A DNA stretch of 64,000 nt from Bacteroidota bacterium. Lineage in GTDB: Bacteria > Bacteroidota > Ignavibacteria > UBA10030 > SZUA-254. Under the pieces are notes generated by a model. It was given only the letters and a program-made list of their open reading frames with translations, did not search any database and was not told where the DNA came from. The position numbers were made by a program, and so were the translations under genes. Below are positions 7,930-54,400 of this stretch, piece after piece; the stretch's first letter is position 1, and each line of letters opens with the position of its first letter. The stretch covers positions 22,721 to 86,720 of the forward strand of contig JBEKTW010000005.1 of NCBI GenBank assembly GCA_049515655.1. Direction: 5' to 3'.

Positions 7930-9327
7930 TTAGGATGTTTTTATTAGTCTCGTGAATTGTGCTACCAGTTGCCGGGACCGCCGTTTCGACGGCGCCTCGG
8001 CAATAATACGGATGATCGGTTCGGTATTAGATTTGCGCAGGTGAACCCATGAATCGGCAAAGTCGATCTTCAGTCCGTCCCGGACGTTTACCGTTCCCTT
8101 CTTCTCATTCCTGTGCCGGATCCTGTCAAGGAGCCGGTCGACATTCTTTTTGGCGACCATTACCTTCGATTTCGTGATTACATACCGGGGCAAGGTGGCC
8201 TTCAGCTCGGACAGCGTCCCGCCAAATTCACAAAGGTGTTGCAGGATAAGTGCGATGCCGACAATCGCATCTCTCCCGTAGTGCACTGCCGGCAGGATCA
8301 CGCCTCCGCTTCCCTCGCCGCCGACAACCGCACCGACTTCCTTCATTTTCCGGGCAACATTGATCTCACCGACCGGTGTCCGGATCACCCTGGCACCGAA
8401 TTTTCCGGCAACGTCATCAACCGCGCGGGTCGTCGAGAGGTTGACGACGACGGACAGTGAACGCTTCCGGCCATTCCCGGGAAGGCGGATGGATCCTTTG
8501 TGCGCTCGAATGCGCGGGAGGATGAAATCCACGACAGAAGTGACGGTATATTCTTCACCGAATGGTTCTCCCCGTTCCGTTATCAGTACAAGCCGGTCGA
8601 CGTCGGGGTCAACGGCAATGCCGAGGTCGGCGCCCTCCGCCCGGACACGCCGGCAGAGTGCTTTGAGGTTCTCCGGAATCGGTTCGGGAGTGTGGGCGAA
8701 CACACCGCTCACGTCGCAATTCATTTCAATGACGGTGCAGCCAAGCTTCCGCAGCAGTCGGGGAACAATCATCCCGCCCGCTGCATTGACGCAATCGACG
8801 ACAACTTTGAATCCCCGTTCCCGAATTTCGCCCGCGTGCACATACGGCAGTCGTGTAACCATATCGATGTGCCTCCAGATGAAAGTATCATCCGGGGTAT
8901 GCTTTCCCATCTTATTCCACGGGCTGTAGGAGAAATTGCCGCGGTCGGCGATGGCCATGAGCCGTTTGTTCTCTGCGGCGTTGAGGAACATACCGGTTTT
9001 ACCGAGGAACTTCAGCCCGTTCCATTGCACGGGATTGTGACTGGCAGTGATGGAGATTCCCCCGTCGGCATGAAGTTGTTCGACGGCAATCTGGATAGTC
9101 GGGGTCGGCACAACGCCAAGCGCCACCACATCGCATCCCATCGAAAGGAGTGTCGAGGAAACCAGATTTCCAATGACCTTTCCTGAAATTCTCCCATCCC
9201 TTCCGATGACCACGGTCCCCCGATTGCAGTATTGCGCGAAGGCACCGGAATACTTCAGGATGACGTCGGGGGTAAGGCCGTCACCGATGACACCGCGAAC
9301 GCCCGAAATGCTGACCATCAACGACAT
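7930..9327 (-). CDS. glmM: phosphoglucosamine mutase (Bacteroidetes-type GlmM; phosphohexomutase family)
   Basis: 465 aa. N-terminus SISGVRGVIGDGLTPDVILKYSGAFAQY, active-site region TASHNP and the metal loop GIAVDPDVDR are all present. Confidence 0.85.
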   Translation of the reverse strand: MSLMVSISGVRGVIGDGLTPDVILKYSGAFAQYCNRGTVVIGRDGRISGKVIGNLVSSTLLSMGCDVVALGVVPTPTIQIAVEQLHADGGISITASHNPVQWNGLKFLGKTGMFLNAAENKRLMAIADRGNFSYSPWNKMGKHTPDDTFIWRHIDMVTRLPYVHAGEIRERGFKVVVDCVNAAGGMIVPRLLRKLGCTVIEMNCDVSGVFAHTPEPIPENLKALCRRVRAEGADLGIAVDPDVDRLVLITERGEPFGEEYTVTSVVDFILPRIRAHKGSIRLPGNGRKRSLSVVVNLSTTRAVDDVAGKFGARVIRTPVGEINVARKMKEVGAVVGGEGSGGVILPAVHYGRDAIVGIALILQHLCEFGGTLSELKATLPRYVITKSKVMVAKKNVDRLLDRIRHRNEKKGTVNVRDGLKIDFADSWVHLRKSNTEPIIRIIAEAPSKRRSRQLVAQFTRLIKTS

Positions 9328-9702
9328 GACGACGACTTTCGGGAGTAGTGGAGTATTGGATTATTGGAGTGTTGCATATTCTGCCGATAAATGTAGCAAA
9401 GATGGGCATGAGAAGCAAGAAAAGAAGGTAATTTCAGGTAGTGGATCAATTTGGTCTGCCGTTATATCTCAGACCGACATGGCAGGGGAACGACGACATT
9501 ACGTCCCCTCTTGCCGAAGGCATCTCTCGGGACGAGAGGGGACTATAGGGGTGTGTTGATGACCGATCGCATTCTGTGTATGTAAGTGAGAGTGATGTGT
9601 CATCCCCAGTTACCCACCCCGTCGACTTCGTCGACACCCCTCCAAGGAGGGGACTTCCCTTTCCCCGCAGTTCAAAGTGAGTCAGTACCGATTCTTTGGA
9701 TT

Positions 9703-9728
9703 GTTTGAAAATGAATCGGAATTTCCGT
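9703..9728 (+). repeat. left 26-bp direct repeat (att-like) bounding the 9.7-14.9 kb island
   Basis: gtttgaaaatgaatcggaatttccgt occurs exactly here and again at 14836-14861. An exact 26-mer shared by chance in 64 kb is extremely unlikely. Confidence 0.85.
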
Positions 9729-9734
9729 TTGTAG

Positions 9735-9836
9735 TTTTGCCAGAACAAGATAAAAGAATTTATTACGAAGCTGCATATACCGGGAAGTGATCCACGAATC
9801 AAGGAGTTGGAGAAAAAGCTGGGTATCAGTGATTGA
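9735..9836 (+). pseudogene. C-terminal gene remnant (...IKELEKKLGISD*) directly after the left direct repeat
   Basis: A 33-codon open frame with no start codon ends at TGA 9834-9836. Homologous remnants (...FIKELDLEEKDLLKKLGQ*) recur at about 11095-11152 and, truncated, at about 10425-10452. Confidence 0.4.
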
Positions 9837-9863
9837 ATCTGCCGAGATCGTTTCGGTTTTCAC

Positions 9864-9900
9864 AAAGCCGGGCGTTTACAGAGCACCCGGCTTTTTTATT
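9864..9900 (+). terminator. rho-independent terminator-like hairpin with a T-tract; this is cassette repeat a
   Basis: aaagccgggcgtttacagagcacccggcttttttatt has an 8-bp GC stem followed by T6. Related hairpins lie at 10456-10521 and 11181-11210. Confidence 0.6.
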
Positions 9901-9924
9901 GCACATAATTCGTCTGAGACGCCG

Positions 9925-10350
9925 TCAGGTATGAGGAAGATATTTCTTGAGTTCCGCATAGAGTTGTTTTTCGGCTGGCAGGAGGGTCACGTGCGTACTG
10001 CGAGCTATTGCTATGCTTCGGTTCGCTCCAGTTTCCCTCATGTTAACGACACGTATGTAAGACAGAGGCTGCAGAACAGTCTCTAAATCCTCAGTTTTCC
10101 AATGCAGTGCGTCGCATAGTTTTTTCTGTTGTGCTTGCTTGTTTTTGGTAATTTCAAGAGCGTCCATAATACCTGCCTCAAGACATCCTTTGGACGCGGC
10201 GTACTCCAAGAAATCTCGCTCCCGCAAAACCGATGGCTTCCCTTTTTCTACAACTGTAAACGTTGGCGGCTTATCAGATAGTACGGGTTCTGACCGACCG
10301 ACTTCAATTCCCTTCCTCTGCAGACAAATCATGATTTCGCTGAAATTCAT
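9925..10350 (-). CDS. hypothetical protein (island cassette 1)
   Basis: 141 aa ORF in the low-GC island. No family was recognised. Confidence 0.45.
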   Translation of the reverse strand: MNFSEIMICLQRKGIEVGRSEPVLSDKPPTFTVVEKGKPSVLRERDFLEYAASKGCLEAGIMDALEITKNKQAQQKKLCDALHWKTEDLETVLQPLSYIRVVNMRETGANRSIAIARSTHVTLLPAEKQLYAELKKYLPHT

Positions 10351-10424
10351 TTGCGTTCTCCTTTGTCGTTACGAGGTCTTTTCTGATTCGCTCACTATAT
10401 ATTGTGAACTGAATAAACTTACTC

Positions 10425-10530
10425 AAACAAACGGTGAAATTCAAATTCATTAAAAGGCCGGGCCAGTGATTGAATCAAACGAGGGCATTACAGTTAAAAG
10501 CCAGACGTTTTCGGCCCGGCCTTTCATTGC
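10425..10530 (+). repeat. cassette repeat b, a degenerate copy of the gene-remnant plus hairpin unit
   Basis: It carries attcaaattcattaa and cagtgattgaatc, embedded in the ggccgggcc...ggcccggcc hairpin. Confidence 0.6.
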
Positions 10531-10594
10531 GATGTTTCCTGTACTAGGATGGCTTCAACTGAGGGTCATGGTTGATTCTTCCTTAACTGTTTTC

Positions 10595-10837
10595 CTAGGT
10601 GGGGTGCAAGCACGACTGAATCAGATGAGCAAAATCATTACCGCAAGTATGCGCAACTTGCGACTTGAAATGTTTTCCGTCATCATTGAGAGTAATGGTA
10701 GCACAGATATTATCCTTACCATGTCTTTTACAAACAAGCGACGAGATTGCATCATACATCCTCTTGAGCATTGACCCCGGGGGCAATTTGTCCGCGTCAA
10801 CGACTTTGTCACAGTATGTGAGAATAAATTTAATCAT
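10595..10837 (-). CDS. small hypothetical protein (island cassette 2)
   Basis: 80 aa. Its start overlaps the stop of the upstream small membrane ORF by 4 nt (ATGA). Confidence 0.3.
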   Translation of the reverse strand: MIKFILTYCDKVVDADKLPPGSMLKRMYDAISSLVCKRHGKDNICATITLNDDGKHFKSQVAHTCGNDFAHLIQSCLHPT

Positions 10838-11067
10838 AGTGTTCCGCTTTTCTTAGAGAGATATTGTACTACCGAAGTGTATCCGGCACAACACATGAGC
10901 AATGGAAGAAATCCATCGCTAAAAGTTGTAAAGAACCAAGTTGCGATCGGATTAGCTGATACCTTATACACGACTCCCCAAAACCACATCGTGAGAACAT
11001 AAAATATCAAAAAATTTACTGCTTGTGTCGGCTTAGCAGGTGCCCATTTAGTTGGTTCTGCTTGCAC
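10834..11067 (-). CDS. small predicted membrane protein with two hydrophobic helices (island cassette 2)
   Basis: 77 aa with two hydrophobic segments (FLIFYVLTMWFWGVVY and GFLPLLMCCAGY). It is translationally coupled to the 80-aa ORF. Confidence 0.35.
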   Translation of the reverse strand: MQAEPTKWAPAKPTQAVNFLIFYVLTMWFWGVVYKVSANPIATWFFTTFSDGFLPLLMCCAGYTSVVQYLSKKSGTL

Positions 11068-11087
11068 AATATAGCGACAAGGGGTGG

Positions 11088-11213
11088 ATATTCAAATTCA
11101 TCAAGGAGTTGGACTTGGAGGAAAAGGACTTACTTAAGAAGCTGGGGCAGTGATTGAATCAATACGAGGTGGTTTCACGAAGCCGGGGGATTACAGAATG
11201 CTCGGTTTTTTAT
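11088..11213 (+). repeat. cassette repeat c (gene remnant plus hairpin)
   Basis: attcaaattcatcaaggagttgga...aagctggggcagtgattgaatc...gaagccggg...ttacag...ctcggttttttattgc is homologous to unit a at 9790-9900. Confidence 0.65.
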
Positions 11214-11244
11214 TGCGATTATTCTGACTTAGCTAAGGCCAAAA

Positions 11245-11826
11245 TCAAATACGTATCCCTTTTGATTGCACTGCCCCAATGATTGCTTTGATGTCTTCCG
11301 CGCCATAAATCGACGCATCAATTTCACGATTGAATTCTGAAACGAACATGGAGTGCAACACTTTCTCCAGTGTTTCTGTTACGTGATTGAAAAAATCAAC
11401 CTCTATATCTGCATCATACCACACTTCACTGGGATTGAATACGGCTTTCTTATCTATGTGAAAATGAGCCTTGTCTCGCACTCCCTTCAGCTTGTCTGCA
11501 AGAATGTTGATGTCCGCCAGACTCAAACCGTTCTTGACCAGTTCGTCTTCTATGCCTTTCGTGTTGCATTTGTGCAAGTAGAAGAAGGAAGCTACACGTG
11601 TGTGTAAATCCAAAACATTCATTACATGTAAGAACATCGCGTCGTGCAATGCGAAGAATGAGTACGTGAAAATAGACGCGCCCGGTTCGGGAAAGGCCGA
11701 AACATTGGGTGCTATAGTCAGTAACTCAGTAAATGCATTCCTGTAAGAAAGAGCACGACGAAGCTCATAAAGGTTACGAATGAGTGCGCGACTATATGTG
11801 CTAAGTGGCCGGTGTTGGGAAGTCAT
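11245..11826 (-). CDS. hypothetical protein with a HEPN-like R-x4-6-H motif (possible RNase toxin)
   Basis: 193 aa. RDKAHFH lies at about aa 117-123, and the protein is predicted to be helical. No confident family could be assigned. Confidence 0.45.
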   Translation of the reverse strand: MTSQHRPLSTYSRALIRNLYELRRALSYRNAFTELLTIAPNVSAFPEPGASIFTYSFFALHDAMFLHVMNVLDLHTRVASFFYLHKCNTKGIEDELVKNGLSLADINILADKLKGVRDKAHFHIDKKAVFNPSEVWYDADIEVDFFNHVTETLEKVLHSMFVSEFNREIDASIYGAEDIKAIIGAVQSKGIRI

Positions 11827-11894
11827 CTACCTCTCTTGCGAACAAAACAGTTCTTGATTCTATTTCTAATCATTCATTGTCGCCTACCTTCCGT

Positions 11895-12668
11895 TCAAAA
11901 ATCTTCCGCTATGACATCCGCGGTAATGATGCAAGTTTTCAAGATTTCTACGCTTTCATGCCTAGAATCTCTAAAGGTTCTGTCAATAAAATCAATCATT
12001 TCAGGCACTTCGGAATCATCTTTCAGAATGATGTATTTGACATCGTCGGGCGTAAAGCTTAACCTGGATTTGAGAGCTAATTGTTCTTCTGCTGTTTCCC
12101 GCTTGGCCTTGTTTAGAAAGTCCGGCTTGATGAGAAGTCTAAGTTCAGAAGGGATATCATTCGGCACCAGCCTCCACTCCCTTTCGTTGTAGAATCTAAT
12201 GTCTTCTCTGTATGCGTTTTCCCTCCACAATTTCCCCTCATAAGGTTTGACATGACTGACAAATGTGAGTACAGCATCCACTAGTTTGTCTTTCAGCTCC
12301 CTCCTGACTTCCTCCTCTTGCGGATTCGTAGCGTTCAAGTTTTCAAACAAATATTGCAGTTTGGTTTTCTTGTGGACATAGAGAACTGGTGTAACTGAAT
12401 GGTCCATTCCCCACTGTTTGGATAGACCTAATCCGTAGCTCCTATCTCCGTAAAAGTCCAGATGGCTTCTTATTAGGAACAGAGGCAAATCGCAGAAGGA
12501 AATCATAGGAATCGCAAACTCTATCGTTCCATCTTGCCAATTCTCCAAGCAGTAATGTGGTATGAAGCCCTTCGCGAGGATGCCTTTCACCTTGTCAATG
12601 GACGGTGTGAAATGGAAGAGTGTGTTGGAACTTATGTTGACGGACGTCGTTCGGTTGTAGTCTGGCAT
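11895..12668 (-). CDS. AbiGi-like abortive-infection family protein (tentative)
   Basis: 257 aa. N-terminal SNTLFHFTPSIDKVKGILAKGFIPHYCLE. The AbiGi assignment rests only on my memory of that family's N-terminal motif and on the similar size. It is not a checked alignment or database hit and could be wrong. Confidence 0.45.
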   Translation of the reverse strand: MPDYNRTTSVNISSNTLFHFTPSIDKVKGILAKGFIPHYCLENWQDGTIEFAIPMISFCDLPLFLIRSHLDFYGDRSYGLGLSKQWGMDHSVTPVLYVHKKTKLQYLFENLNATNPQEEEVRRELKDKLVDAVLTFVSHVKPYEGKLWRENAYREDIRFYNEREWRLVPNDIPSELRLLIKPDFLNKAKRETAEEQLALKSRLSFTPDDVKYIILKDDSEVPEMIDFIDRTFRDSRHESVEILKTCIITADVIAEDF

Positions 12669-12766
12669 GAAGCACTCACTTCCTCAGTCATTCTTGAATC
12701 GTCACGGCCAGCGAATTTTGTGTGTGCTGGTCGCCCTAAAGTCTGGCCAAAGTCGTCGCTACGTCG

Positions 12767-13690
12767 TTACTTAGTCTCGGTTGCACGATAAGTCTCAATT
12801 AAGAATCGCATAAGTGTGGTTGTCAAGTATATCATGTACTCCAGTTCGGAATCCGAATAGACTCGCTCATCGGCAGGCTCAAAATCGCTGTCGTGCTTAA
12901 CGGCCGTGCTCTGGTACAACGAGAACTGTGTTAGCATAGTAAAATAGTTTTGACGAATCTGAGAGTGAACTCCTTTCTCTTTCATCCATTTGAGCAGCGG
13001 CTCTTTTTGCTTCTCAATCGGAGAATTGTTTCCTAAAACAACCTTCAGAAGGTTCTCAAGTGCAAATCGTAATGAATCTAGGGCTTGGCGGTACATAGAA
13101 GCGTCTTTGGAAACCGCTATGGAGAGTGCTTTGTTATATTCTTTGACGACGTCAGGATATTTTCTGAGCCAAATAGCGTTCTCGTCCACAGCTTCATCAA
13201 GCAGTTTGATACCATCAGGATAGAGCTCCATCTTGCCATCTATGTTCTCAATGCGTCTTATATTTATTCCCGACGAACTTTCGATTGCCGTGTTCAAATT
13301 TGCTATAAGAGATTGAACGGCTGTCTTGAACTCGTCAAGTGTCTCGTAAGAGGCAGATAATTGTTCAAGTGACCAGAAAAGACGCTGCAAGACAAGAATC
13401 AGCTCACTTAGCCCTTGCGCATTTGTAAGATGTTTGATAATACCTTGTCCGATTGCAAGGTATGCTGGGTCCACGTACTCTGAGCCGTTGATTACTGCAA
13501 ACTTTCCCTCAACTGCCGCCACCAGTGACGTAGCTTCAATATCGTATATCATCTCATCAAGGTATTTCAAATCGCTCAGAAAACTACCGACGGCCGTTGA
13601 CACTCTATTACGAAATTCTGAAAATAGCTTCTCTTTTGGGATGACTATTCCCCATCTTTGCATGAAATCATTGGTTGGTGTCTTGCTCAT
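12767..13690 (-). CDS. hypothetical protein, predicted helical, upstream partner of the AbiGi-like gene
   Basis: 307 aa ORF that reads convincingly as coding within the AT-richer island. No family was recognised. Confidence 0.55.
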   Translation of the reverse strand: MSKTPTNDFMQRWGIVIPKEKLFSEFRNRVSTAVGSFLSDLKYLDEMIYDIEATSLVAAVEGKFAVINGSEYVDPAYLAIGQGIIKHLTNAQGLSELILVLQRLFWSLEQLSASYETLDEFKTAVQSLIANLNTAIESSSGINIRRIENIDGKMELYPDGIKLLDEAVDENAIWLRKYPDVVKEYNKALSIAVSKDASMYRQALDSLRFALENLLKVVLGNNSPIEKQKEPLLKWMKEKGVHSQIRQNYFTMLTQFSLYQSTAVKHDSDFEPADERVYSDSELEYMIYLTTTLMRFLIETYRATETK

Positions 13691-13869
13691 GATAAGTCTG
13701 CCGATTCCCGTGCCTTTAATTGTACTTGGCGAATATACAAAAGATTTTGTCCCGTGTCAACAAAGTCTAAATCTATTTTTCTGGCTCGCTCATTGTTTTT
13801 CTTCAATATGAATGAGTAAACTTACCGAAAAAGACAAACATCGTAGCTTTTCGGTGTTATGTGCCGCGA

Positions 13870-14562
13870 TTATTTCTTGTTCAAACCTGTTTGCTGTTTA
13901 ACCGCTGGCGTGTCCGCTTTTATTCTTTCTGGATTTAGCACAAGCACTCTTGTTGTGTCACGAAAAGCGTTCATATTCGTAATGAGCACATCTCTCTGAG
14001 TTTTGTAGGTGACAAATTGGAAAAAACCCATCAAGAGACTTACAACAATTGATACAACAGCAATCCGAAATGTCAATTGTTGGGCTTGTTTTCTATCGGC
14101 CGCCTCTTGTTTTCTGTCCGCGGCGTCTTGAGCAAAGCGCTGTTCATCTAAGGTTAAGAAGCCACGGTCAACAAAATCAGATAACTCTGGTAGAGGGGCG
14201 ACATAAAATCCATCGTAAGACCGGATTATCCCCATGATTTCATGTTCCGCGTCGTTCTGACTAGCAAATATAGGTAAGAGGCGCACGCCCTTACTTGCCC
14301 TGCGTAACCTTGTTACAAGCCCTTCTCGTTCTAATCGTGACCAAAGTGATATGAATTCAGTAAGCTCTGAAATAGTTTTGTCACGATTCTTAGGAATATA
14401 ACCGGTTGTCTTAGGGTCACAAACCAAATCCCATCCAGGATAAGATTGCTGGAGGATGAAACGTTCAAAGTCACCGAACTGCAAGAGAAATTTTTCAGTG
14501 TCAGTTGCTTTGTTTTGCAGCCAGGCTCGTACAATCTCTTGTTGAATACTACTCAGTTTCAT
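13870..14562 (-). CDS. hypothetical protein with a single C-terminal transmembrane helix
   Basis: 230 aa. The C-terminal IAVVSIVVSLLMGFFQFV is hydrophobic and is preceded by a charged Lys/Gln-rich linker (DRKQEAADRKQ). Confidence 0.5.
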   Translation of the reverse strand: MKLSSIQQEIVRAWLQNKATDTEKFLLQFGDFERFILQQSYPGWDLVCDPKTTGYIPKNRDKTISELTEFISLWSRLEREGLVTRLRRASKGVRLLPIFASQNDAEHEIMGIIRSYDGFYVAPLPELSDFVDRGFLTLDEQRFAQDAADRKQEAADRKQAQQLTFRIAVVSIVVSLLMGFFQFVTYKTQRDVLITNMNAFRDTTRVLVLNPERIKADTPAVKQQTGLNKK

Positions 14563-14835
14563 ATCGCTTTACTCCATGTTGTGCTGAGCAAACTTACCCA
14601 AACACGCTGTAAATATCAAGTCCACTTGTAATTCTGACCAATCGCGTTCTGAGCTTAGACCGAGGAATGCGTTTCGTGTTTGGGCAGGCAGAAAACAATA
14701 AACCCGTTCAGAGACCTCCTTCCTGTTCCCAAACAGGCCTTATTGCTCAAAACACTGTAGGACAAAATGTAGGATGATTCGCACAAATCCTGCAATTTCC
14801 CGCATTGCAGTCGTTCAAGAGTGCTTTCCCATACC

Positions 14836-14861
14836 GTTTGAAAATGAATCGGAATTTCCGT
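14836..14861 (+). repeat. right 26-bp direct repeat (att-like) bounding the island
   Basis: Exact copy of 9703-9728. Confidence 0.85.
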
Positions 14862-14885
14862 AAGTTTCTGTCGAGCATATCAATA

Positions 14886-15464
14886 ATGGATACTGATTCC
14901 ATGCTATCCAAATCTGAAAAGCAGTTCTTACTCGAGATTGCCCGGGCGTCCGTGGGCGCTGCAGTGAGACTCGAGACCGCGCCAAAGCGCGGCGATTGCC
15001 CTCCGGTGATTCTACGGCCGAGCGGCGCGTTCGTCACGCTGCACGAAAAAGGTGAATTGCGTGGATGCATCGGGTATATCGAAGCCATCAAGCCGATGAT
15101 CGATACCGTGCGCGAGGTTGCGGCCAAGGCGGCAACATCAGACCCCCGCTTCGCTCCCGTCACCCCCGAGGAACTGCCGATTCTCGAGATCGAGATTTCC
15201 GTAATCTCTCCAATGAAACGAATCCAGAACATCGACGAGATTGAGGTCGGCAAGCACGGATTGCTCCTCGAGCGAGGGATGTACCGCGGCCTCCTGCTGC
15301 CGCAGGTGGCGACAGAATACGGTTGGGACAGGGAAACCTTTCTCAATCAGACGGCGAGGAAGGCCGGCCTGGAGCCGACGGCATGGAAGAAACCCGGAAC
15401 GACGATATACACCTTTACCGCTGAAATTTTTGGTGAGCGCTCTATGGACTCACAACATTCATAA
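14886..15464 (+). CDS. AMMECR1 domain protein (AmmeMemoRadiSam system protein A-like)
   Basis: The AMMECR1 core VTLHEKGELRGCIGYIEA is present. The true start is taken as the ATG at 14886 because the longer ORF-track start would run through the direct repeat. Confidence 0.8.
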   Translation: MDTDSMLSKSEKQFLLEIARASVGAAVRLETAPKRGDCPPVILRPSGAFVTLHEKGELRGCIGYIEAIKPMIDTVREVAAKAATSDPRFAPVTPEELPILEIEISVISPMKRIQNIDEIEVGKHGLLLERGMYRGLLLPQVATEYGWDRETFLNQTARKAGLEPTAWKKPGTTIYTFTAEIFGERSMDSQHS

Positions 15465-18292: not shown

Positions 18293-18635
18293 GTACGTTG
18301 GTAGTTAGATAGTTGAATAGTTATGTAGCTATGTAGTAGTGAATAATGACCAATGATTAATGAACAATTACAACGAACTGACAACTAAGAACCAAAAGCC
18401 AACAGCTAAAGGCTAGAAGCCAGAAGTCAGAATCCAGAAGCAAGAAGCCAAGAGCTAATGGCCAACAGCTAAAAGCTAATAGCTCAAGGCCATAACCAGG
18501 AACAAATGACAAAGAACCAATAACTAATAAGCTAAAAGCTAAAGGCCAACAGCTAATGGCTAAAGGCTCGATGCCAGAACCAACGACGAATGACCAATGA
18601 CAAATGACTAATGACCAACAACCAACAATCAGGCA
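18293..18635 (+). repeat. copy 2 of the purine-rich intergenic repeat family, running from the stop codon to the start codon
   Basis: See copy 1. It ends ...caaccaacaatcaggcaATGacc, where the ATG is the start codon of the next gene at 18636. Confidence 0.8.
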
Positions 18636-49172: not shown

Positions 49173-50000
49173 ATGGCTGATTGGCAGAGTCGACACATCG
49201 ATGAGACGGATTTCCTGGTTGTCGATGTTGAGACGACAGGGCTCTCCCCCGATACGGGCGACCGGGTGTGTGAGATTGGAGCGATCAAAATCCGCGGCGG
49301 GGCGGTGGTCGACACGCTCAGCAGTCTGGTTAATCCCTGCCGGCCCATCTCGGCAGGAGCGTACGCGGTCAACAGGATTTCTCCGGCAATGGTCGCCGAC
49401 GCCCCGGAGTTCCATCAGCTCGCAGAACGCCTGCTTCAGATGATGGACGACTCGGTACTCGTTGCGTATAATGCCCCTTTCGACGTCTCGTTTCTCGACA
49501 GTGAACTCCGCCTCGCGGGCCATCCGCGCATTCGCGCGAAGGTCGTCGACGCGCTGGCGATCGCGCGTCAGCTTCTTCCGGGAATTGGCAGATACCCTCA
49601 GGAGAACGTCGCCCAATTCCTGGGGATCCCGTTTCCCGTGAAGCACCGTGCCCTCGACGACGTGATGGTGACATCCAGAATCTTCATCTTCTTTGTCTCT
49701 ATGATGAAAGCATACGACCTTACCTCCGTCGCCGACCTCGGGCGCAGGGATCTTTCAAGCGTCATGCAGACGAAGCGTATCAGCATCGTCCAGGAGGCGA
49801 TGATCAAAGGTTCACATCTCTGGATAAAGTACCTCTCTCCTACAAACGCAGAAATTACCGACCGCATCGTTACTCCCAAAGACCTCGTCACCGAACAAAC
49901 ACCCTACCTGTTTGCATATTGTCATTCGGCAAAGGCTGAGAGAAATTTTCGGATCGATAGAATCCTGGACTTAAGGTTGGTACAAAAAGTGTCTGCCTGA
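49173..50000 (+). CDS. DnaQ-like DEDDh 3'-5' exonuclease fused to a C-terminal WYL-like domain
   Basis: Exo I FLVVDVETTGL, Exo III HRALDDV. The C-terminus WIKYLSPTNAEITDRIVTPKDLV...YLFAYCHSAKAERNFRIDRI matches the WYL-domain consensus, with the I.Y...R.V.P...YL.A.C...R.FRIDRI pattern recovered. Confidence 0.7.
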   Translation: MADWQSRHIDETDFLVVDVETTGLSPDTGDRVCEIGAIKIRGGAVVDTLSSLVNPCRPISAGAYAVNRISPAMVADAPEFHQLAERLLQMMDDSVLVAYNAPFDVSFLDSELRLAGHPRIRAKVVDALAIARQLLPGIGRYPQENVAQFLGIPFPVKHRALDDVMVTSRIFIFFVSMMKAYDLTSVADLGRRDLSSVMQTKRISIVQEAMIKGSHLWIKYLSPTNAEITDRIVTPKDLVTEQTPYLFAYCHSAKAERNFRIDRILDLRLVQKVSA

Positions 50001-50004
50001 TGGA

Positions 50005-50095
50005 ATCACCAAAACTGTCTGAACCTGGATTTTGGGGACTAAAGGATGATCACGATTTCTTGATCGCGGTAATCTCATATTCTGCAACTCGAGAC
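50005..50095 (+). repeat. partial unit of the ~107-bp tandem repeat
   Basis: ...caccaaaactgtctgaacctggattttggggactaaaggat...gcggtaatctcat corresponds to the second half of the unit. Confidence 0.6.
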
Positions 50096-50290
50096 ATCTG
50101 AATTATCGACGGATGTTGCTCATGAGAACAAGACCACACCTGTCATTCCCGCACGTTTTAAGCGGGAATCTATTTAAGATGCGCGATTCAAGTCCCGCCT
50201 TTTGGATTCCGCTTACGTAGGCGGGATTCTGAAAAGCGGAACATTCGGGCATGACAGGCTTTTTGATTTTTCAGATGTCTCAAATCATGG
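50088..50290 (-). mobile_element. MITE-like element related to 24962-25140, inserted into the tandem array
   Basis: Ends gagacatctgaa... and ...tttttcagatgtctc. Inner palindromes: gtcattcccgcacgttttaagcgggaatc and ggcatgacagg. Confidence 0.6.
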
Positions 50291-50385
50291 TTCAGACAAC
50301 GGTGGCATCATCAAAACTGTCTGAACCTTGATTTTGGGGATTATAGGATTTCCTTGATAGTTTAATAAGAGCAATCTCATAAGCT
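50281..50385 (+). repeat. full unit of the ~107-bp tandem repeat
   Basis: Contains the 10-bp hairpin ggttcagaca-N20-tgtctgaacc. Confidence 0.7.
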
Positions 50386-50514
50386 TCCTTCGGGTCCCGC
50401 AGAGCCAAGTGAAACGGAAAAATTGATAGAACATCAGAATATTATGAAATGACAAAGCCCGATTCTCTTGTTCCAAATTAGCGAATTGAACGATCCATTC
50501 TTCTCATCAGAGGA

Positions 50515-51030
50515 TTGAAAATCATGCTTGATAGAGACCTCGCCGAACTCTACGGAGTTCAAACGCGAGATCTTAATAAGGCAGTACGACGAAATAGCGA
50601 TCGTTTTCCATCTGATTTTATGTTCCAGCTCACTCCCGAGGAATATAAAAACTTGATGTTCCAATTTGGAACATCAAGATGGGGCGGCACAAGGAAGCTT
50701 CCCTACGCTTTTACAGAGTTAGGCGTAGCGATGCTCTCCAGTGTATTGAACAGCGAGCGAGCCGTCCGCGTAAACATACAGATTATGCGTGCATTTGTGG
50801 CACTTCGGGAGATCCTTGCTACCCACAAAGACCTTGCCCGAAAATTAGAAGAAATGGAAAAGAAATACGATCAGCAGTTCAAAGTGGTGTTCGAGGCAAT
50901 GCGGCGACTAATAATTGCTTCTGGCAGTGCGCAAGACAAGCCAAAACGCGAAATTGGATTTAAAGTTGGAGAACCAAATGTTCTCTATACACCTCGAAAA
51001 AAAGACAAAGTGATGAGAAGGAAATATTAA
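50515..51030 (+). CDS. ORF6N-domain (KilA-N-like) DNA-binding protein of the kind common on mobile elements
   Basis: The N-terminal [39 protein letters not shown] matches the ORF6N consensus. 171 aa. Confidence 0.75.
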
Positions 51031-51064
51031 TGACCGAAGAATTTAAACAAATGGTAATCTTATA

Positions 51065-51440
51065 ATCATGCGAATCATGGTTCGAACAACGGCGGCATCA
51101 CCGAAACCGTCTGAACCTTGATTTTGGGGATTATAGGATTTCCATGATTGTTTAATCGCGGTAGTCTCACGATCATGCGAATCATGGTTCAGACAACGAC
51201 GGTATCACTGAAACTGTCTGAACCTTGATTTTGAGGATTATAGGATTTCCATGATTGTTTAATCACGGTAATTTCATAATTATGTGAATCACGGTGCAGA
51301 CAACGACAGTATAACCGAGACTGTCTGAACCTTGATTTTGGGGATTAAAGGATGACCATGATTTTGTAATCAAGGTAATCTTATAATCATGCGAATCACG
51401 GTTCAGACAATGGATCCCGCTTGCTTCCCTCCTCACAACT
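51065..51440 (+). repeat. three and a half tandem copies of the ~107-bp hairpin repeat, immediately upstream of (and overlapping) the 5' end of the next gene
   Basis: Unit starts fall at about 51065, 51172, 51280 and 51386, a period of 106-108 bp. Each unit contains ggttcagaca...tgtctgaacc, gattttggggattataggatttccatgattgtttaatc and cggtaatct. Confidence 0.85.
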
Positions 51441-51484
51441 CAGTATCTTGTTGCCTGTTCTACCACACTTACAAAGGAACTGCC

Positions 51485-54400
51485 ATGAACCGTAACCGCT
51501 ATTTCGCTTTGCTTCTGAGTATTCTGTTTTCTGTCGGAATGCTCCTCGCCCAACCCACGAAGTCGGATTCCCCGGCTCCCAAAGATACGGCCAAAAAATC
51601 GGACACCAAATGGGACGTTTCTGCCAAGCATGGTCCTTCTCAGGACATTGAGTTCGAAACGGACGAGGGGACGTGGATCTCAGTCGATGTCAGCCCTGAC
51701 GGCAAACACATAGTCTTCGACCTCCTCGGCGATATCTATATCATGCCCATCAGCGGCGGCGACGCGAAGCTGCTCTGCGGAGGACCGGCGTACGAAGTGG
51801 AGCCAAGGTTTAGCCCGGACGGGAAGAAAATTTCATTCACCAGCGACCGCGATGGCTGCAATAACATCTGGATGATGGATGCCGACGGAAAGAATCCAAA
51901 GCAGCTCACTCATGAAAAAGAGCGCCAGACAAACAACGCGGTCTGGTCGCCGGATGGTCAGTTCATCGTCGCGCGGAAGCACTACCGCAACGAACGCTCG
52001 CTCGGCGCGGGCGAAATGTGGATGTATCACATCGGCGGCGGCGACGGCCTGCAGCTCACGAAACGCCGCAACTGGGAACAGGATGCTGGCGAACCATGCC
52101 TCTCGCCCGACGGCCGTTACCTCTATTACAGCGAAGATGTGAGTCCCGGCGGCGGTTTTCAGTACAACAAGGATCCGAACGGAACAATTTACGTCATACA
52201 GCGACTCGACATCCAGACCGGAAAAACGGAACAGTTCATTCACACTGAGGGCGGCGCCGTGCGCCCCCAGGTTTCACCCGACGGAAAAACGATCGCTTTC
52301 GTCAAACGCGTCCGTCTTAAGACAGTCCTTTACACGTTTGATGTCGAGAGCGGCAAAGAGACGCCGGTCTACGACAATCTCAGCCGTGACGCCCAGGAAA
52401 CCTGGGCGATGTTCGGCGTCCATCCGGGCTTTTCCTGGATGCCGGACGGGAAGCGCATCGTCATCTCAGCCAAAGGTCACATCTGGATAATCGATGTGCG
52501 CACGAAGGAAGCGACGCAAATTTCTTTCAAAGTGCACGTCAGGCAGACGATCACCAACGCAGTCCGTTTTCCCCAGGAAGTTGCGCCGGAAAAATTCGAC
52601 GTCAAAATGCTTCGCTGGGTGACCGTTTCCCCCGACCAGAAATCCGTCATCTATAATGCTCTCGGCAAATTATGGATACGATCCCTCCCGCAGGGAACTC
52701 CGAAGCGCCTCACCAACGATGAAAAACGATTTGAACTATTTCCTGCGTTCTCGGCTGACGGGAAATGGATTGTGTACGCGACGTGGAACGACGACGAGCA
52801 GGGTTCTCTCTGGAAGGTCAGAGCTGACGGGTCATCCCAAACGAAACTGACTGTCCGCAAAGGACATTACGTCGAACCGGCATTCTCACGCGACGGATCA
52901 AGAATCGTTTTCAAGAGGATAGGCGGAGATAATCTCCGCGGCGACGAATACACGCACGAGCAAGGCATTTATTGCATGCCGGCATCGGGCGGCAAAGCAA
53001 CTCTCATTACGGAAGAAGGCTCGCGGCCTATGTTCAACAAAAACGGGGACAGGATTTTTCTCCTTTCCGGTGAGGGCGATAAGACCGCTTTTGTCAGTGT
53101 CGGGCTCAGCGGCGAGCAACGGCGTGTTCACCTTCTCTCCGACAACGCCGAAGAAATCGTCCCGTCGCCCGATGAGCAATGGGTCGCATTCGTTGAGCGA
53201 TTCAACGCCTACATCGCAGTCTTTCCCAAAACCGGACAGGCGGTCATGATCGGTCCGGGCACGTCGGATTACCCGGTCAAACGGGTGACCCGGGACGCCG
53301 GAACGTACCTCCACTGGTCGCCCGACAGTAAGGCGCTTCACTGGTCGCTCGGACCGGAACTGTATTCCCGCGACCTGACGAACACGTTCAAATTCGTCGA
53401 TGGAGCTCCCGATAGCGTTCAGGAAAAACCGGATACAACAGGACTCAACATCAGTTTTTCGGCATTGACCGACAACCCCACCGGACCCGTCGCCCTCGTC
53501 GGAGCCACCCTGATTACGATGAAAGGCGATGAGGTCATTCCGGATGCGACGATTCTCATTGAGCGAAACCGCATCAAAGCCGTCGGACCGTCTGCGAGCG
53601 TACAGGTTCCCGCGAACGCCTACAAACTCGACGTAAGAGGGAAGTACATCATGCCGGGGATCATCGACGTCCACGCGCACATTCCCACCGGAAGCAGCAA
53701 CATCGTTCCCCAGACCCATTGGCCGTATTACGTCAACCTCGCGTTTGGCGTTACGACAGCGCACGACCCTTCGTCTGGCACCGAAATGGTCTTTTCAAAC
53801 TCCGAGCTGCTGAAAGCCGGAATCCTCGTGGGACCGCGACTCTATTCAACCGGCACGATTCTGTACGGCGCCGAAGCGCCGTTCAAGGCGATCATCAACA
53901 ACTTCGACGATGCGATGTCTCACCTGCGACGCATGAAGGCGGTCGGAGCGTTCTCCGTAAAAAGCTATAACCAGCCGCGGCGCGATGAACGCCAGCAAAT
54001 CATTGAAGCGGCCCGTGACCTCAAAATGATGGTCGTGCCCGAAGGCGGCTCGACATTCTTCTGGAACGTCTCGATGATTCTGGACGGCCATACGGGGATC
54101 GAGCATTCACTTCCGGTCTCTCCTCTTTACAAGGACGTGCTCACGCTCTTCGGCAAGAGCCAGACCGGTTACACTCCGACTTTGATCGTAAGCTATGGCG
54201 GATTGTGGGGAGAGAACTACTGGTTCATGAAGACGAAAGTCTGGGAAAACGAACGTTTACTCAAATTTACTCCGCGGGAAATAATCGATGCGCGATCCCG
54301 CCGCCGGTTGATGGCAGAGGAAGACGACTTCAACTACATCGACAACGCGCGCGCCGTAAAAGCGGCCCTGGACGCCGGCACGAAGGTTCAGCTCGGCGCA

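Follow-up and report, generated by a model that had tools for sequence, protein, structure and literature searches.

The closest described counterparts of the locus reported here are the cDHS1 and cDHS2 hotspots of Pseudomonas aeruginosa, which are flanked by core genes and are proposed to be transferred via homologous recombination in those conserved flanks (Johnson et al. 2023; PMC10250203). The present locus is an island (positions 9703-14861) in a 64-kb stretch of DNA, hereafter referred to as the window, from the metagenome-assembled genome of an uncultured member of the Ignavibacteriota/Bacteroidota, where it occupies the spacer between the divergent genes glmM and AMMECR1. Like cDHS1 and cDHS2, it has conserved flanking core genes, a lower-GC content that differs between strains and no single mobilising element or integrase (PMC10250203). 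It differs from them in size, the islet, as the locus is called across strains, being 1-5 kb against their median of 26 kb (PMC10250203), in its occurrence in one poorly sampled uncultured clade in which only some of the occupants look defensive, and in its apparent position inside a promoter, marked by a duplicated promoter copy.

A second comparison is provided by the cis-mobilisable elements (CIMEs), which are defined as keeping attL and attR without the integration genes (ICEberg 2.0; PMC6323972). With the CIMEs of Streptococcus and other att-bounded islands without an integrase the islet shares its flanking direct repeats, the lack of genes for integration or transfer and a possible tandem arrangement, the example being the related locus L083. 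It departs from them in having no known cognate integrative and conjugative element, integrative and mobilisable element or integrase, in a repeat that appears to be a promoter rather than a gene end, in the age of its repeats and in showing no evidence of excision or accretion.

The cargo of the island, seven open reading frames (ORFs) numbered o1 to o7 in order of position, can be compared with two groups of phage defence systems. [quoted passage not shown] In the canonical plasmid pairs AbiGi is followed, 2-3 nt apart, by AbiGii (~400 aa, PF16873). In the island, too, a clear AbiGi-family protein (o5) is encoded ahead of another gene of the same orientation; the difference is that AbiGii is absent, that other gene being o4, a 193-aa HEPN_AbiU2-family protein placed after a 68-nt gap. 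The HEPN families of Abi systems include AbiU2 (Anantharaman et al. 2013; PMC3710099), and the associations recorded for AbiU2-type HEPN in that survey are with Sel1-repeat genes, restriction-modification operons and Bxe_C0808. With the HEPN proteins of Abi and toxin-antitoxin systems o4 shares the Rx4-6H signature and a family that mostly matches HEPN_AbiU2, and the structural model of o6 superposes on HEPN domains. However, a pairing of an AbiU2-type HEPN with AbiGi is absent from the list in PMC3710099, and o6 has no clear Rx4-6H motif.

Taken as a whole, the island is probably, though by no means assuredly, a horizontally acquired and strain-specific islet, the result of an old insertion into the AMMECR1 promoter followed by turnover of the cargo in a core-gene-flanked hotspot.

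The island and its 26-nucleotide repeat

The island is set apart from its surroundings by base composition. The G+C content, in 500-bp windows, is 0.41-0.47 for positions 10001-15000 versus 0.52-0.60 in the flanks, and at the third codon position (GC3) it is 0.35-0.51 in the island ORFs versus 0.57-0.71 in the flanking genes (glmM, dprA, AMMECR1, Memo and their neighbours). Judged by both measures, the island DNA is compositionally foreign. An earlier inspection of the letters by a model, made without database searches (hereafter the sequence-only reading), had noticed the lower G+C content and had suggested that codon usage be plotted, and both measures bear it out. The island is base-for-base the same in the JGI 3300038425 contig (70 kb) and in the independent Logan assembly SRR13021855 and is therefore not an assembly artefact. 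The seven minus-strand ORFs counted in the sequence-only reading were recovered. Five of these (141, 193, 257, 307 and 230 aa) were called independently by the JGI and the Logan gene callers, and the status of the two smallest (80 and 77 aa) is uncertain. The description of the content as non-housekeeping also stood, with defence-type genes present among the cargo.

The 26-mer GTTTGAAAATGAATCGGAATTTCCGT that bounds the island is present as two exact copies, both on the plus strand, at 9703-9728 (left copy, with a -33 TTTG at 9704-9707) and at 14836-14861 (right copy), the positions given for it in the sequence-only reading. These are the only exact copies within the 64 kb, no further copy was detected there at up to three mismatches, and none of 100 shuffled sequences gave a match. 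The 26-mer is thus not dispersed, and the explanation as a widespread genome repeat, which would have spoken against an island, falls away.

Bacteroidota-type promoters are composed of a -33 TTG and a -7 box resembling TAnnTTTG. Judged by this layout, the 26-mer is the promoter core of the AMMECR1-Memo operon and spans the -33 box to the initial T of the -7 box. The core gene of the right flank, AMMECR1 (AmmeMemoRadiSam system protein A; 14901-15464, plus strand), is followed by Memo. The right copy together with the next seven bases (TTTGAAAATGAATCGGAATTTCCG-TAAGTTTC), which complete the -7 box and reach 14868, is the orthologue of the promoter of the relatives, with a spacer of 20 nt, and is predicted to be the working promoter of the AMMECR1 operon. 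Relatives with a short glmM-AMMECR1 spacer of 100-380 bp carry two conserved blocks, AATGTAGCAAAG..GAGAAGCAAG on the glmM side and cTTGAAtaTCAnnnnnATTTTCCGTAAGTTt on the AMMECR1 side, the latter lying ~30 nt before the AMMECR1 ATG with the pattern cTTGAAt..N..ATTTTCCGTAAGTT. The strict promoter motif was found in the 11 nearest of 48 relatives, and in most of the others a looser arrangement, TTGAA-N17-19-TTAC/TAAGTT, was recognised by visual inspection. The related loci L001, L083 (right copy), L097 and L098 retain the 26-mer exactly, whereas the DNA around it differs by 10-15%. Since relatives with an empty site have the same layout, the identity of the two copies is at least as well explained by conservation of a promoter as by a recent duplication of an att site.

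The left copy is followed by TTGTAGTTTTG, which re-creates a TAnnTTTG box with a 24-nt spacer instead of one of 20 nt (new -7-like box TAGTTTTG, 9732-9739, plus strand). The left copy is an orphan copy of the core promoter and, given this spacing, may be weak. The sequence-only reading had placed the island between the glmM promoter region and AMMECR1. Its location in the spacer holds, but the repeat is more than a neighbour of AMMECR1 and is better described as the predicted core promoter of that gene. On the glmM side, the promoter-like motif of glmM (9386-9424, minus strand; AATGTAGCAAAG...GAGAAGCAAG in plus-strand letters) recurs in the short spacers of the empty-site relatives. It is the last stretch common to all clade members on that side, the homology between the window and L083 stopping at 9423.

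Two coding interpretations of the repeat were considered. If AMMECR1 began at the ATG at 14844, inside the 26-mer, the repeat would be a 5' coding end present in duplicate; this was rejected in view of the -33/-7 layout conserved in the relatives and of their MLS... start, and AMMECR1 most likely begins at 14901 (MLSKSEKQ), as it does in them. In L083, a frame of 41 codons is open from the ATG of the left promoter copy (MNRNFRLSFCQNKIKELISKLDIPGRDPRIKELEKKLAITD; L083 reverse complement 8778-8903). Its counterpart in the window (9711-9834) has a TAG at codon 8, the changes appear by eye to be mostly non-synonymous, and the frame is probably non-coding.

A hairpin-rich stretch was also observed upstream of glmM, at 9441-9629 (e.g. 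CCCCTCC-AA-GGAGGGG at 9637-9652). It has no match in Rfam, and its part from 9510 to 9629 does not align to the closest relative, L001.

Occupants and breakpoints of the spacer in related genomes

The comparison set comprised 81 loci fetched with GlmM, namely those of 80 relatives and the window's own contig. AMMECR1 is the divergent neighbour of glmM in 50 of the 81, and the content between them is variable among strains, as in a core-gene-flanked hotspot. The spacer measures 101-376 bp in 37 of these 50 loci, and inserts of 0.9-8.2 kb are present in 11 relatives. The inserts of the distant relatives are unrelated to each other and to that of the window and include secreted proteins of the type IX secretion system (T9SS) type, a TonB-dependent receptor, a RelE-like pair (L007), an insertion sequence element and a sigma54 regulator. 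Ten distant insert-bearing loci were searched for a duplication of the region upstream of AMMECR1, and none was found. The spacer was considered as a family-wide defence hotspot and this was rejected, only the RelE-like pair among those distant inserts being of a defence type. Across all the loci the defence-type occupants are the AbiGi, HEPN and PDC-S32 proteins of the window, the HipBA pair of the ENA contig ERZ1426824 and the RelE-like pair; the others are BNR lipoproteins, T9SS proteins, a TonB receptor and proteins of unknown function.

In the clade of the window, all six sampled members (the window, L083/L084, L001, L099, the ERZ1426824 contig and L097/L098) are occupied, each with a different cargo. 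The sequence-only reading had named retention of the same genes by relatives as a reason to give up the island, and the relatives do not keep them. L001, in which GlmM is 89% identical, carries a BNR/Sortilin-repeat lipoprotein and a membrane protein next to a single 26-mer, with no left copy. L083/L084 (~90% nucleotide identity) have two cargo blocks and two promoter copies. L099, from a sister sample, has a 108-aa ORF and a BNR lipoprotein as its cargo, and the ERZ1426824 contig, with an AMMECR1 74% identical, has an HTH_3 and HipA pair (HipBA-type toxin-antitoxin) between glmM and AMMECR1. The contigs of L097 and L098 end inside the region upstream of AMMECR1 that includes the segment U described below; each has one copy of the 26-mer and is occupied.

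These variable genes are enclosed by a shared scaffold of four parts, namely el1, the cargo promoter, U and the AMMECR1 promoter. The first of these, el1 (9729-9905, plus strand), is a conserved left-end segment that is 90% identical in L083 and ends in a strong hairpin and T-run terminator (9865-9900). It may correspond to an orphan transcript of ~150 nt from the left promoter copy. Its fold has a z-score of only -1.9, the folds of el1 and U are unremarkable, and the search for structured RNA gave no Rfam match at the gathering threshold or at E<=1 and no tRNAs. The cargo promoter TTGATATTTACAGCGTGTTTGGGTAAGTTTG (14585-14639, minus strand) is divergent from AMMECR1, is conserved in L083 and L001 and fits TTG-N-TAnnTTTG, of which it holds the sole strict match on its strand (14589-14619); the first gene that it precedes is different in each strain. 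The segment U (14697-14835, plus strand) in every case abuts a promoter copy, from the cargo side. It contains TGTAGGAC-N4-TGTAGGAT-N11-ATCCTGCA, that is, two direct and one inverted 8-mer (TGTAGGA repeats), and this arrangement looks like a putative protein-binding array. In the 1.45 Mb of fetched loci the U motif is confined to the clade of the window, with two copies in L083.

The points at which the strains part from each other do not coincide with the 26-mer. Relative to L083, the breakpoints of the window are at 9902 on the left and ~14590 on the right, and relative to L001 at 9687 and at ~14585/14749. In L099 the left breakpoint lies beyond the end of the contig, and the right one is at 14870/14871, 9 nt to the right of the repeat. 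To the right of 14871, L099 is 97.9% identical to the window, whereas its upstream region, including U and the promoter, is a diverged allele that is ~55-60% identical (alignment inspected; L099 1225-1470 versus window 14640-14905). This change is, as judged from the alignment, a sharp recombination breakpoint. Strain breakpoints situated away from the 26-mer indicate that the repeat does not delimit the variable unit.

The duplication itself appears to be old. The left copy in L083 has one mismatch (25/26) and the same CCGT|TTGT junction as the window. The duplication in L083 extends 106-170 bp upstream, with 77-83% identity, and ends at the same CCGT| junction; the sequence to the left of the window's left copy is common to L001. 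A decayed copy of U was sought in the left flank of the window (9600-9702) and rejected, the local alignment score being equal to the shuffle mean. Identity between the window and L083 is 90.3% in el1, compared with 90.9% on the glmM side and 89.5% on the AMMECR1 side. The island ends have thus diverged as far as the core genome, which suggests that the duplication predates the split of the strains. As a rough estimate, if the ~83% identity of the L083 repeat represents neutral divergence, matches of 26/26 and 25/26 would be unlikely without selection or gene conversion.

Cargo proteins and internal modules

The best-defined member of the cargo is o5 (257 aa; 11895-12668, minus strand). It matches Pfam PF10899 with an E-value of 6.6e-30 (104.9 bits, cut-off 22.4), PADLOC AbiGi with 2.5e-46 over residues 5-257 and PHROG 13416 with 1.9e-45. 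The NCBIfam AbiGI equivalog model gives 51.6 bits, below its cut-off of 300, and o5 is therefore a member of the AbiGi family and not an orthologue of the lactococcal AbiGI. The AbiGi-like ORF that had been picked out from the letters is this protein, and the ORF that had been credited with a HEPN-like motif is o4 (193 aa; 11245-11826, minus strand), a divergent HEPN_AbiU2-family protein with the motif R117-x5-H123.

No Pfam match at E<=1 was obtained with o4 itself. A profile search with o4 recovered 288 cluster representatives, and 45 of 62 aligned family members match PF18734 HEPN_AbiU2 (best E-value 8.5e-13). R117 and H123 (Rx5H), D125 and W136 are conserved in at least 90% of the 62-member alignment. 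The AlphaFold2 model of o4 is all-alpha and of low confidence (mean pLDDT 52). From these features o4 is predicted to be an RNase-type effector. No match of o4 was found in plasmids, and its homologues occur without AbiGi neighbours. The possibility that o4 is a short AbiGii was rejected, pairwise BLAST showing no similarity and hhalign of the o4 family against the AbiGii profile giving a probability of 0.1%. Neither o4 nor any other island ORF matches AbiGii (PF16873) at E<=1, and the module is thus not a canonical AbiG.

On the other side of o5 lies o6 (307 aa; 12767-13690, minus strand), a PDC-S32-like protein for which the model suggests a HEPN-like fold. A sigma70-like promoter (TTGACA-17-TATATT; 13760-13732, minus strand) is present upstream of it. 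The match to the PADLOC candidate PDC-S32 (E-value 1.7e-28) is limited to residues 165-301 of 307 (profile 107-233 of 237), in the C-terminal half, and the N-terminal half is unmatched. A Foldseek search of the o6 model against the PDB returned only spurious helical-bundle (G-protein-coupled receptor) matches, and nothing on PDC-S32 was found in a literature search. The homologues of o6 adjoin DUF4238, or PUA-like and HsdM genes, and none adjoins a homologue of AbiGi, o4 or o7. Conserved partners of o6 and o4 were sought and rejected, the homologues being found in unrelated contexts. Promoter-like boxes precede o1, o3, o6 and o7. As no terminator-like site was found between o6, o5 and o4, these three genes may form an operon, and it is their adjacency that suggests a functional link between them.

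AbiGi-family genes without AbiGii were also observed in L104 (Escherichia coli plasmid NZ_CP083507.1) and L100 (Shewanella plasmid pS18501); in one of the two the AbiGi gene stands alone beside Avs4, and in the other it is followed by hypothetical proteins of 65 aa and 162 aa. From such arrangements, the AbiGi family seems to pair with varied partners.

The remaining proteins, o1, o2, o3 and o7, have no family match in Pfam, PADLOC, NCBIfam or PHROG. The first, o1 (141 aa; 9925-10350, minus strand), is preceded by a Bacteroidota-type -7 box TAAGTTTA at 10410-10432, and o7 (230 aa; 13870-14562, minus strand) has one hydrophobic helix near its C-terminus. The coding status of o2 (80 aa; 10595-10837, minus strand) and of the hydrophobic o3 (77 aa; 10834-11067, minus strand), which overlap by 4 nt, is uncertain; the JGI and Logan calls disagree in this region, JGI having a 102-aa plus-strand ORF instead. 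With 75% identity to L099 1016-1112, which falls within the 108-aa ORF of that locus, the stretch between o7 and o6 (13690-13787) resembles the remnant of a gene and would point to a mosaic history.

A decayed prophage or phage-satellite remnant, from which the integrase and the structural genes were deleted and in which the att duplication was left, would account for the low G+C content, for the direct repeats and for Abi-type genes, which prophages often carry, and o5 does match PHROG 13416. No other PHROG match was obtained among the seven proteins, the 22-mer core of the repeat gave no match in viral contigs and none of the sister-strain versions has phage-like genes; such an origin is thus highly improbable.

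Another feature of the interior is a module that recurs behind the genes. It has the form CAGTGATTGAATC...G+C hairpin...TTTTTTATTGC, is 80-130 nt long and is present as three plus-strand copies, 9795-9905 (within el1), 10436-10541 (el2) and 11087-11226 (el3), with none elsewhere in the 64 kb. Of these, el2 repeats part of the 3' half of el1 (CAGTGATTGAATC...hairpin...ATTGCG). The minus-strand gene units o1, o2-o3 and o4-o7 are each followed immediately on the 3' side by one copy. The modules may have arisen by duplication of a terminator or promoter module.

Three hairpin-bearing modules that are restricted to the island and follow the gene units, together with genes that all have one orientation downstream of one conserved promoter, recall an integron-like cassette array without an integrase (cluster of attC sites lacking an integrase, CALIN), in which the modules would be attC-like sites and the cassettes would be read from the cargo promoter. 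The attC sites of unrelated cassettes are usually much less alike than these modules. Inspection, made without an attC model, found no paired R''/R' (RYYYAAC/GTTRRRY) cores in them, and their hairpin is a simple G+C stem with the T-run on the strand opposite the genes. The gene units, moreover, have their own promoters, and neither intI nor attI is present. The chance that the island is such an array is very slight, and the integron-like and the prophage-remnant readings alike find little support.

Two further features of the window lie away from the island. The sole other low-GC patch, at 50001-52000 (G+C content 0.44-0.48), contains an ORF at 50515-51030 that encodes a 171-aa ORF6N-domain protein (Pfam E-value 1.4e-30, GC3 0.43), lies just downstream of an RNase_T exonuclease-WYL fusion gene (49173-50000) and may be a small acquired gene. 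The intergenic region 18293-18635 forms a simple-sequence array, rich in A and C, that repeats at intervals of 7, 14 and 84 nt (CCAAAAG, AGCTAAT, ACCAATG). A 215-bp part of this array is 98.6% identical to L083 10351-10565, which is a different locus; the two genomes are ~90% identical overall.

Proposed insertion and cargo turnover, and evidence on mobility

According to the reading favoured here, foreign DNA with its own copy of the promoter region (U and the 26-mer) would have recombined into the AMMECR1 promoter in the ancestor of the clade. The event would have been of the Campbell type, homologous or site-specific. At the glmM-side end, an orphan promoter copy with the short terminated unit el1 behind it would have remained, and a working promoter would have been rebuilt before AMMECR1. 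Later, the interior cargo, enclosed by the conserved ends and by the core genes of the flanks, would have been replaced time after time, probably through homologous recombination among strains, so that each sampled strain would come to hold different low-GC genes. In the window strain, the cargo would consist of small, separately promoted units with o6-o5-o4 as the core unit. This unit would be an abortive-infection or toxin-antitoxin-like module with the AbiGi-family protein between two HEPN-type proteins, in which detection of phage and/or restraint of the effector may fall to the AbiGi-like protein and the HEPN proteins may act as RNase effectors.

Several observations weigh against this account. 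The sharp CCGT end inside the -7 box, shared between strains, would be the expected product of a site-specific recombinase with arm sites, and the constant position of U and its TGTAGGA repeats next to the promoter copy, towards the cargo, twice in L083, would fit such an enzyme as well. Cargo of foreign G+C content would have needed some non-homologous route into the scaffold, and the three copies of the el module may record stepwise accretion of cargo at a specific sequence. No empty site with the exact 26-mer, which the sequence-only reading had expected in related genomes, was found among the six clade members, empty sites being seen only in distant relatives, and the sampling of the clade is thin (six genomes or contigs). 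As regards function, a defensive activity of the cargo is suggested by homology, the sister-strain cargo is not recognisably defensive, and the occurrence of o4 and o6 homologues without AbiGi neighbours speaks against a defence module.

Many of the same features can be read as those of an integrative element without an integrase, similar to a CIME or a satellite, in which the 26-mer would be the att core, U an arm-type region and the recombinase, of the tyrosine or the serine type, would act in trans from elsewhere in the genome or from a helper element. Such elements would target the AMMECR1 promoter, each bringing a copy of it, and L083 would hold two in tandem. The exact direct repeats and the sharp junction common to the strains are in keeping with this, as are the restriction of U to the clade, the two units of U and core in L083 and the conserved ends (el1; the cargo promoter with U) around variable cargo. 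A highly conserved target sequence is typical of integrases, and a recombinase is missing from the inside of CIMEs as well (PMC6323972). Against it stand the ends, which are as diverged as the core genome and so suggest vertical inheritance, the strain differences, which are not bounded by the repeat, and L001, which has no left copy. Neither an empty site with the exact 26-mer in the clade nor a comparable duplication in the ten distant insert-bearing loci was encountered.

The searches for a mobility apparatus bear on the same question. No match to an integrase or a transposase was obtained among the seven island ORFs, and no recombinase was found in the JGI annotation within 10 kb on either side of the island or in 20 further window ORFs, a subset of those in the window, of which two had no Pfam match. 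The absence of an integrase claimed from the letters is thus confirmed within this range, and neither the ORFs checked nor the flanks yielded a helper. Viral contigs gave no match to the 22-mer core of the 26-mer; in metagenome contigs it was found only in the sister strain and as a chance match inside an unrelated Firmicute-like coding sequence. Neither an element bearing an attP or attP-like junction nor an integrase partner was detected, nor was the island encountered at another location or in an empty or circular form. Of the features of an att-bounded element, the island shows direct repeats flanking DNA of foreign composition, but not empty sites or boundaries at the repeats. The sequence-only reading had described the locus as a defence island or an integrative element. 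The first of these descriptions can be retained in a loose sense, whereas an integrase-less integrative element is considered unlikely.

A more specific version of that alternative is more doubtful still. It supposes a family of small integrase-less islets in the Ignavibacteriota that target the -7 box of the AMMECR1 promoter, a housekeeping promoter of high conservation, carry their own copy of that promoter, depend on a trans-acting recombinase recognising the TGTAGGA repeat array (U), accumulate in tandem as in L083 and shuttle defence cargo, for instance a non-canonical AbiGi and HEPN module. If this were true, the promoter copy carried by each islet would keep the AMMECR1 operon of the host expressed.

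Under the favoured reading, that of an old insertion with later turnover of the cargo, the islet is a fairly ordinary variable hotspot, to which the promoter repeat adds an instructive twist. It serves as a caution that an exact direct repeat around an island need not be an att site and can instead be a promoter kept by conservation. The occurrence of AbiGi-family proteins with HEPN-type neighbours instead of AbiGii points to a possible effector for AbiGi-type modules. If the reading is true, the locus would be one more small core-gene-flanked hotspot with defence-type genes, in a phylum where such loci have hardly been described, and the spacer between glmM and AMMECR1 may serve as a landmark for new accessory and defence genes in Ignavibacteriota metagenomes.

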